Made by a program: the position numbers and the translations under genes
Part shown: positions 21,588 through 21,730 of the stretch, one piece after another
Layout: the number at the start of each line of letters is the position of its first letter
How positions within the stretch are numbered: the first letter of the stretch is position 1
Notes under the pieces: generated by a model
Seen by the model: the letters and a program-made list of their open reading frames with translations, nothing else
Told to the model about the DNA's origin: nothing
The model's database searches: none
Sequence record: PV611058
Strand: one strand, 5' to 3'
From: Escherichia phage WPEC3
DNA: 64,000 bases

Positions 21588-21730
21588 TTAGCCGTCTATA
21601 CTTCCAGACGTGTAACCATCTAGCCGTTTAGCCGTCCAAACGTCTAGCCATCCAGCCATCCAGAAATCTAGCCGTTTAGCCGTCTAGATGGATAGCCATC
21701 TTTACTTCCAGACTTCTGGAGGGCTAGACA
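21588..21730. repeat. iteron-like cluster of TAGCCGT(C/T) / (T/C)AGCCATC octamers
   Basis: at least 8 copies within about 140 bp, flanked by CTTCCAGAC inverted motifs. Confidence 0.65.

Follow-up and report, generated by a model that had tools for sequence, protein, structure and literature searches.

An octamer cluster in the genome of Escherichia phage WPEC3 is probably a tandem super-array of about 18 predicted metboxes, the sites of the SAM-dependent methionine repressor MetJ of the host, situated in the non-coding end of the direct terminal repeat (DTR); we put the probability of this reading at roughly 0.6. The window, that is, the whole stretch of DNA that was analysed, comprises 64,000 nucleotides of sequence record PV611058, and its features are collected in Table 1. 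The initial annotation had reported at least eight copies of a locally enriched motif with an irregular spacing of 8-14 bp. We found eight exact copies of YAGCCRTY on the plus strand (starts 21589, 21621, 21629, 21645, 21653, 21669, 21677 and 21693), and their start-to-start distances (32, 8, 16, 8, 16, 8 and 16 bp) are all multiples of 8. The gaps between the exact copies are filled with degenerate copies of the octamer, and thus the spacing is in fact a strict 8-bp register, in which the cluster forms a single tandem array of 18 units; Tandem Repeats Finder (TRF) also gave a period of 8 at this place. When the reading frame is moved by one base (unit start 21589/21590), the unit reads AG(C/A)C(G/A)TCT. 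The enrichment statistics that had been proposed as a check bear out the local concentration: the cluster has its eight copies in about 150 bp, where about 0.06 are expected (Poisson P about 3e-15), against 25 more copies on both strands in the remaining 64 kb of the window. The motif had also been described as unlike its AT-rich surroundings, which agrees with the GC content of the array (48.6%, versus 36.3% for the window). As for the inverted motifs said to bracket the cluster, two loosely matching arms of 18 nt exist (21594-21611 and 21712-21729, 78% complementary), whereas the two copies of TACTTCCAGAC (21599 and 21704) run in the same direction, as a direct repeat. Some self-complementarity is to be expected in an array whose unit is nearly palindromic.

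MetJ binds DNA as a ribbon-helix-helix dimer, one per 8-bp box, with cooperative contacts between neighbours and with SAM as co-repressor, and its operators consist of two to five boxes. The metbox consensus of Escherichia coli MetJ is AGACGTCT, each box takes one MetJ dimer, and at least two adjacent boxes are required (PMC3228920). The E. coli host encodes metJ, and by its letters the array unit is a match to the metbox. By our own calculation, a random octamer would fit AGACGTCT at seven or more of the eight positions, in one phase or another, with a probability of about 0.003. With the published half-metbox matrix, a box is accepted from 3.15 bits upwards and a site from 12.58 bits upwards (PMC3228920). 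With this rule, 14 consecutive boxes pass in the window (21590-21701), totalling 102.8 bits against the 12.58 required. Over the whole array, 16 of the 18 boxes reach 3.15 bits (range of these, 3.8-10.7), including strong boxes at 21710 and 21726, outside the 14-box run. The rest of the 64-kb window yielded just one further passing site, a marginal one of two boxes, and shuffled windows yielded about 1.3 sites each, with at most three boxes. When 150 kb of E. coli K-12 were scanned in the same way, five sites were obtained, four of which are the metJ/B, metF, metE/R and metA operators with three to four boxes each.

Matrices of our own gave concordant results in both directions. A matrix derived only from 16 octamers of the window, applied as three in-register units to both strands of 150 kb of K-12, placed metJ/metB (21.5), metR/metE (21.0), metA (20.0) and metF (18.0) at the top, and the next score was 12.3. 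Conversely, a symmetric matrix made from 16 natural boxes of those four E. coli operators put the array far ahead of everything else in the window (24.2 versus 12.0 for three units, 59.1 versus 12.9 for eight units), and the per-box scores of the array were on a par with those of the natural boxes. A BLAST search of phage records with the concatenated natural E. coli boxes returned host fragments only, such a query being too insensitive. Although the units of the array are heterogeneous, the metbox positions A1, C4, T6 and C7 are kept across genera and families of phages. Furthermore, the pair AGCCRTCT AAACRTCT, with which several phage arrays start, also occurs beside promoters in Haemophilus, Vibrio and Shewanella genomes, and a scan of bacterial genomes found typical operators of two to four boxes in Pasteurellales, Vibrio and Shewanella.

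The array and the gammaproteobacterial MetJ operators, such as metF, metA, metJ/B and metE/R of E. coli, share the 8-bp unit, the abutting arrangement and the Y|A step at the junctions, and AGCCGTCC of the array is also a box of the E. coli metE/R operator. However, they differ in size, since the phage array has 14-18 boxes (up to 28 in other phages) and the four E. coli operators scanned have three to four passing boxes, and in a strong strand bias of the phage array towards AGCC boxes. They also differ in location. To our knowledge, MetJ operators have been found only ahead of bacterial methionine genes. The phage array lies in non-coding terminal-repeat DNA and controls no methionine gene: it overlaps no promoter, no gene for methionine or SAM metabolism is present there, and the nearest promoter, 91 bp upstream, reads into non-coding DNA. 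Therefore, we regard it as a putative metbox array and not as a member of the met regulon.

The window belongs to an Asteriusvirus, a jumbo coliphage like PBECO4, 121Q and G17; more than 30 records match it over 2.1 kb at 94-98% identity. In the record of vB_Ec-M-J, whose DTR is annotated at 1-21525, position 1 corresponds to window position 22503 and position 21525 to window position 1, and the window and the start of the right-hand repeat stay collinear through 22503. Thus, the window is the left 64 kb of the linear record and begins with one complete DTR. For fEgEco12, a DTR of 20,993 bp was identified with PhageTerm and checked by restriction digestion (PMC13070987). The array is 770 bp inside the boundary at 22503, within about 2 kb lacking ORFs, with minus-strand genes on either side; where the ends of a record have been mapped, the distance between the array region and the record start is about 700-1060 bp. 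A change in the sign of the GC skew near 22.5 kb coincides with the DTR boundary. There (window 22000-23000) the skew goes from about -0.1 to +0.2 though the genes on both sides are minus-strand, and thus it is the coding strand that is C-rich in the small genes at 22.8-27 kb.

Table 1. Features of the terminal repeat of the window, and arrays of the same octamer in other phages (passing boxes, consecutive boxes accepted by the published rule)
Feature or phage	Position	Strand	Passing boxes	Remark
Direct terminal repeat (DTR), one complete copy	1..22503			Mapping to vB_Ec-M-J record
Predicted sigma-70-type promoter TTGACA-17-GATAAT, into array	21463..21491	+		11/12 consensus matches
Leader hairpin GCGGGGAAACTATCCCCACGC, then conserved box GGTAGGGGAACTATTGGAAAA	21527..21568	+		Sequence reading
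Array of predicted metboxes	21590..21733			Units in order: AGCCGTCT ATACTTCC AGACGTGT AACCATCT AGCCGTTT AGCCGTCC AAACGTCT AGCCATCC AGCCATCC AGAAATCT AGCCGTTT AGCCGTCT AGATGGAT AGCCATCT TTACTTCC AGACTTCT GGAGGGCT AGACATAT
Two copies of TACRCCCAAAATCC directly after array	21735..21772	+		Repeat families
Terminator-like hairpin (two CAGTACTG arms)	21940..21973	-		Between leftward terminal promoter 22138-22111 and array
Hairpin GGCAGACTTCCTCTGCC, then TACT	22483..22503			Ends at physical terminus/DTR boundary
Asteriusvirus: vB_Ec-M-J, G17			vB_Ec-M-J, 14; G17, 12	
Other Rak2-like jumbo genera: Serratia BF, Erwinia pEa_SNUABM phages, Xanthomonas XbC2, Pectobacterium CBB	Array 650-840 bp from record start		XbC2, 8 + 4; CBB, 7 + 4	
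T5-like Demerecviridae: Vibrio Pontus, Aeromonas AhSzq-1 and AhSzw-1, Providencia PR1	Terminal non-coding block		AhSzq-1, 28 (221 bits); AhSzw-1, 16; Pontus, 15; PR1, 9	Block homologous to T5 Repeat Region 3
Autographiviridae, Ermolevavirus: PGT2, phiKT	PGT2: 38 bp from left end, about 150 bp from right, inside repeat		PGT2, 9; phiKT, 9	phiKT record start is not a genome end
Autographiviridae, Drulisvirus: KPV811	About 65 bp from early end of record			Record without repeat copy

The array is part of a larger conserved module. The promoter upstream of it would start transcription near 21498, which places the array at about +91. In the relatives BF (Serratia), Yen9-04 (Yersinia), XbC2 (Xanthomonas) and CBB (Pectobacterium), a promoter of the form TTGCAw-N-GATAAT/TATTAT with an A-tract upstream is found about 95-100 bp before the array. 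Leader hairpins are present at the same place with other stems (CTAGT/ACTAG, CTGGT/ACCAG or CTAGA/TCTAG), and the leader-box pattern GGGGARCTAWTGGAAAA was found in all Rak2-like loci except CBB, where it is slightly diverged. Thus, the Rak2-like genera share the order of an A-tract, a sigma-70-type promoter, a hairpin, GGGGARCTAWTGGAAAA, 15-19 octamers and then CCCAAAAT. When a 361-bp query was used, only the array and the leader box still aligned between genera. Downstream of the array, GTACACCCAAAATTCAGAC is present in BF and CBB, and near the record start GACTTC (GACTTCAGGA followed by GATA) is present in BF, XbC2 and CBB. On the minus strand, the terminator-like hairpin may shield the array from the leftward terminal promoter.

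Several other repeats were noticed in the same part of the genome. Four copies of YRCCCAAAATYC lie in the terminal non-coding region (21186-21210, 21405-21425 and 21729-21777); the element is kept after the array in BF and CBB, and one of the CBB copies is enclosed by a perfect 15-bp inverted repeat (CCCACAGGGTGCGGA and TCCGCACCCTGTGGG). The palindrome CAGTACTG occurs 69 times in window 1-37500, where 1.1 copies are expected, and is dense in 1-22600. Many of its copies lie within the spacer of minus-strand sigma-70-type promoters (TTGACA-N8-CAGTACTG-TATAAT) between small early genes; it looks like an operator-like element built into early promoters. The terminal regions of BF, CBB and XbC2 also abound in AGTACT. 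Tandem repeats of the 10-bp TGATTACWTT flank the boundary at 22503, about 55-90 bp inside (22416-22449) and about 140-180 bp outside (22645-22682), with one extra unit in vB_Ec-M-J; they are a candidate terminase recognition element. Just outside the DTR, about 15 tandem paralogous ORFs of 358-449 amino acids begin (27293-47580, plus strand), and all three of those scanned match PHROG 4219 (RCC1-like 'regulator of chromosome condensation' repeats). Farther on, a minus-strand ORF of 516 amino acids (51316-52866) has matches to PHROGs 681 and 559 (HNH/endonuclease). It is similar to a repeated-domain protein encoded by AhSzw-1, a T5-like Aeromonas phage, and is probably a homing endonuclease.

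Arrays of 9-28 boxes were found in the DTRs or at the genome or record ends of Rak2-like jumbo phages, Demerecviridae and Autographiviridae (Table 1); that of CBB lies inside the annotated repeat of 22,456 bp. In total, G17 has 16 boxes, the window 18 and vB_Ec-M-J 19, so that close relatives differ by whole boxes. MetJ is confined to Enterobacterales, Pasteurellales, Vibrionales, Aeromonadales and Alteromonadales (PMC3228920). The hosts of the array-bearing phages (Escherichia, Salmonella, Serratia, Yersinia, Erwinia, Pectobacterium, Cronobacter, Klebsiella, Providencia, Vibrio and Aeromonas) belong to these orders, with Xanthomonas, the host of XbC2, as the single exception. In the podoviruses, array and terminus are about 40-65 bp apart, and in the jumbo and T5-like phages about 650-770 bp. 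The AGCC strand bias is directed toward the repeat boundary in the window, but in AhSzq-1 it points away from the boundary; a symmetric dimeric binder would tolerate these opposite polarities. A tblastn search with MetJ against 50,697 phage records gave host contamination only. When the window was compared with the other array-bearing loci by tblastx, the sole shared proteins were DUF7249/phrog_871 and the homing-endonuclease-like ORF, neither of which is restricted to array-bearing phages. The window encodes two DUF7249/phrog_871 paralogues on the minus strand (18017-18286 and 20069-20347), about 60-75% identical to an early gene of the podovirus PGT2; phAPEC8-like (Phapecoctavirus) and related phages carry this gene too, which makes it a small early gene that is exchanged widely. 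Since no phage homologue of MetJ and no array-specific shared phage protein were found, and since the polarity flips, a shared host factor would be the most economical explanation of an identical motif in three unrelated phage families. The metbox arrays may have been placed convergently by several families of terminal-repeat phages. A full-text literature search yielded no paper that connects MetJ with the genomes or terminal repeats of phages and none describing such an array, and we know of no phage DNA array that acts on MetJ.

The T5-like phages connect the array to a known structure. In T5, the injection-stop region is Repeat Region 3 of the left terminal repeat, and the calculated shear point of first-step transfer falls in its DRE/DRC repeats (bioRxiv 10.1101/866236). 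In the T5-like phages, the array is at the place of the DRE/DRC repeats of T5. In PR1 (repeat 1-10461) it lies 770 bp inside the inner boundary, as in the window, and adjoins DnaA boxes and a LexA-like CTGT-N8-ACAG box in a region homologous to T5 Repeat Region 3; DnaA boxes are also found beside the arrays of Pontus and AhSzq-1. T5 itself has no passing metbox site by the published rule and carries Fur-box-like repeats instead: the core AATGATAATCATT, with up to two mismatches, occurs 17 times in 11 kb, where 1.05 are expected, and 11 of these copies are in 9558-9709 of the DRE/DRC repeats. Fur is not mentioned in the T5 paper. Within the terminal non-coding block, SOS-box-like palindromes CTGTATAnATATACAG adjoin DnaA boxes in T5 (6213 and 9411) and at the T5-like Vibrio, Aeromonas and Providencia loci (704-799, 3874-3920 and 2160-2206), where they are directly beside the metbox arrays and form a cluster of host-regulator sites with them. 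The presence of boxes for different host repressors at one position, beside DnaA and LexA-like boxes, suggests that occupancy by protein may itself be what matters. Davison had already suggested DnaA, a host protein, for the T5 stop and regarded the matter as unsolved. The window resembles the T5 stop in having, at one end of a long terminal repeat, about 1 kb of non-coding, repeat-packed DNA. However, its terminal region has neither DnaA boxes nor LexA-like boxes, and the paired DnaA boxes and the IRD'/IRC' inverted repeats seen beside the arrays of PR1, Pontus and AhSzq-1 were not found in it. The array of the window does lie at a repeat end, and jumbo phages are not known to transfer their DNA in two steps.

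Some observations do not fit MetJ well. Position 3 is C (AGCC) in about half of the phage boxes and in 10% of natural half-boxes, and this bias is common to several phage lineages. The array of XbC2 is intact, though Xanthomonas is outside the MetJ-bearing orders. Arrays of the types (AGCCGTCT)n and (AGCCATCY)n also occur in bacteria without MetJ, namely Gemmatimonadales, Anaerolineae and a Mycobacterium (about 140 chance matches to the octamer-array pattern are expected in the 596 Gb searched), and thus the octamer alone is no proof of MetJ. The units of these bacterial arrays are nearly identical to one another; as a rule an array has an inverted partner, with which it could form long hairpins, and the arrays lie in short intergenic gaps of high-GC genomes. 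They occur at many loci per genome and have stop codons in all six frames. From these characters we treated them as a separate phenomenon.

The same observations, together with the position of the array in the terminal repeat, 40-770 bp from the boundary or the physical end, would suit a phage-encoded binder of metbox-like specificity, such as a terminase small subunit or a small ribbon-helix-helix protein, for which the array would be a signal for packaging or terminus processing. However, the families concerned have unrelated terminases and an identical motif, and the proteins shared by the loci compared are limited to the two named above, of which DUF7249/phrog_871 is also encoded by phages that the array searches did not find. 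The flip in polarity and a roughly 20-fold difference in the distance to the terminus are likewise against a terminase site, for which the TGATTACWTT repeats flanking the cut site are a better candidate. Because the unit is a metbox and no shared phage protein emerged, we down-weighted this possibility and consider it unlikely. Short direct-repeat arrays are also present beside the terminal repeat of another DTR phage, T7: in 1983, Dunn and Studier reportedly described arrays (SRL and SRR) of 7-bp CCTAAAG units with spacers flanking the terminal repetition. Like the array of the window, these have no settled function; unlike it, their 7-bp units are spaced and are not known to be a host-repressor site.

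The initial annotation had likened the cluster to the binding array of an initiator or partition protein. The general idea of an array of protein-binding sites is retained in our interpretation, at least as a prediction from the sequence, whereas the analogies with iterons and partition sites found no support. Origin iterons are repeats of about 17-22 bp in helical phase, accompanied by an initiator gene, an AT-rich unwinding element and DnaA boxes. The direct repeats in a 2-kb ORF-free region, an A-rich tract ahead of them and a minimum of the cumulative GC skew near 22-23 kb are reminiscent of an origin, but the units abut with a period of 8 bp, no DnaA box is present in 20700-22600, the skew flip is that of the DTR boundary, and the seven nearest ORFs of this 350-kb genome gave no Rep- or Par-like domain by Pfam or PHROG. 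Furthermore, the same array is carried by phages with unrelated replication systems. We therefore rejected the iteron reading and give almost no credence to a replication origin or partition centromere. The omega heptads of pSM19035 and the ParG/parH arrays of 8-bp tetramer boxes of TP228 are closer in form, as contiguous units of 7-8 bp, direct or inverted, take one dimer each and a protein filament is formed on the DNA. Those proteins, however, are plasmid-encoded and serve partition or copy control, whereas the candidate binder here is a chromosomal repressor of the host and no partition gene was found among the seven nearest ORFs.

An RNA product is another conceivable role, in which the promoter would transcribe the hairpin leader and the repeats, and the UAGCCRUC units would bind or sequester an RNA-binding factor. 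The module of promoter, leader and array is kept in three jumbo-phage genera, with hairpins that retain their structure and differ in stem sequence, and the fold has a z-score of -3.35. Nevertheless, a near-palindromic unit leads one to expect self-complementarity anyway, Rfam in E-value mode gave only a chance miRNA match in window 20500-23100, the arrays of the T5-like phages and podoviruses appear from their sequences to have no matching upstream promoter or leader, and the polarity flips between families; we think such an RNA very improbable. The changes in copy number by whole boxes among close relatives, and the emergence of octamer arrays in many genomes, might alternatively reflect neutral, microsatellite-like expansion without function in tolerant non-coding terminal DNA. 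This too has little probability, in view of the conservation of A1, C4, T6 and C7 in otherwise heterogeneous units, of the persistence of the array and leader box between genera, and of the low chance that a random octamer fits the consensus.

If the array is indeed one of metboxes for MetJ, its function has to accommodate a place in non-coding terminal-repeat DNA near the repeat boundary, a number of boxes far beyond what repression needs, and, in T5-like phages, occupation of the slot of the DRE/DRC repeats of T5. From what is known of MetJ, phage DNA in a SAM-containing cell would be coated by up to 14-18 dimers over about 145 bp of the repeat. One possible explanation, which we rank first but hold only tentatively, is that the coated segment is a host-protein plug, anchor or roadblock on the terminal DNA. 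It would then fill the niche of the T5-like injection-stop region and might hold or insulate the repeat end during DNA entry, or at the junctions of genome copies in replicating DNA. MetJ could also be a roadblock for the transcript that enters the array from the upstream promoter. A second explanation, which seems to us somewhat less probable, is that the arrays soak up MetJ as the phage DNA multiplies, so that methionine and SAM synthesis are de-repressed. Titration loci of the datA type are a precedent for a DNA locus as a protein sink. Phage SAM lyases de-repress the met regulon and are a precedent for manipulation of the SAM-MetJ axis by phages, but they are enzymes and not DNA arrays (PMC7877911). 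The sink is hard to reconcile with phages of the T5 type because early destruction of the host DNA would make de-repression useless.

A wider and more speculative generalization, which we consider rather unlikely as a whole, is that DTR phages (Rak2-like, T5-like and T7-like) have convergently put super-arrays of host-repressor sites near their genome ends, for MetJ here and for Fur, LexA and DnaA-type proteins in T5, as a plug on the first-entering DNA. In that case, the long-sought host factor behind the arrest or anchoring of DNA at a T5-type stop would be MetJ with SAM, or its equivalents, and the jumbo coliphages would have a similar staged and metabolite-sensed entry. If the metbox reading is true, arrays of 9-28 boxes in the DTRs of three unrelated lytic phage families would represent a new use of a host repressor by phages. 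The array might serve either to put a SAM-sensing coat of protein on the terminal DNA or to take up the repressor like a sponge, and it would bear on the old question of which host protein acts at the T5-type injection stop.
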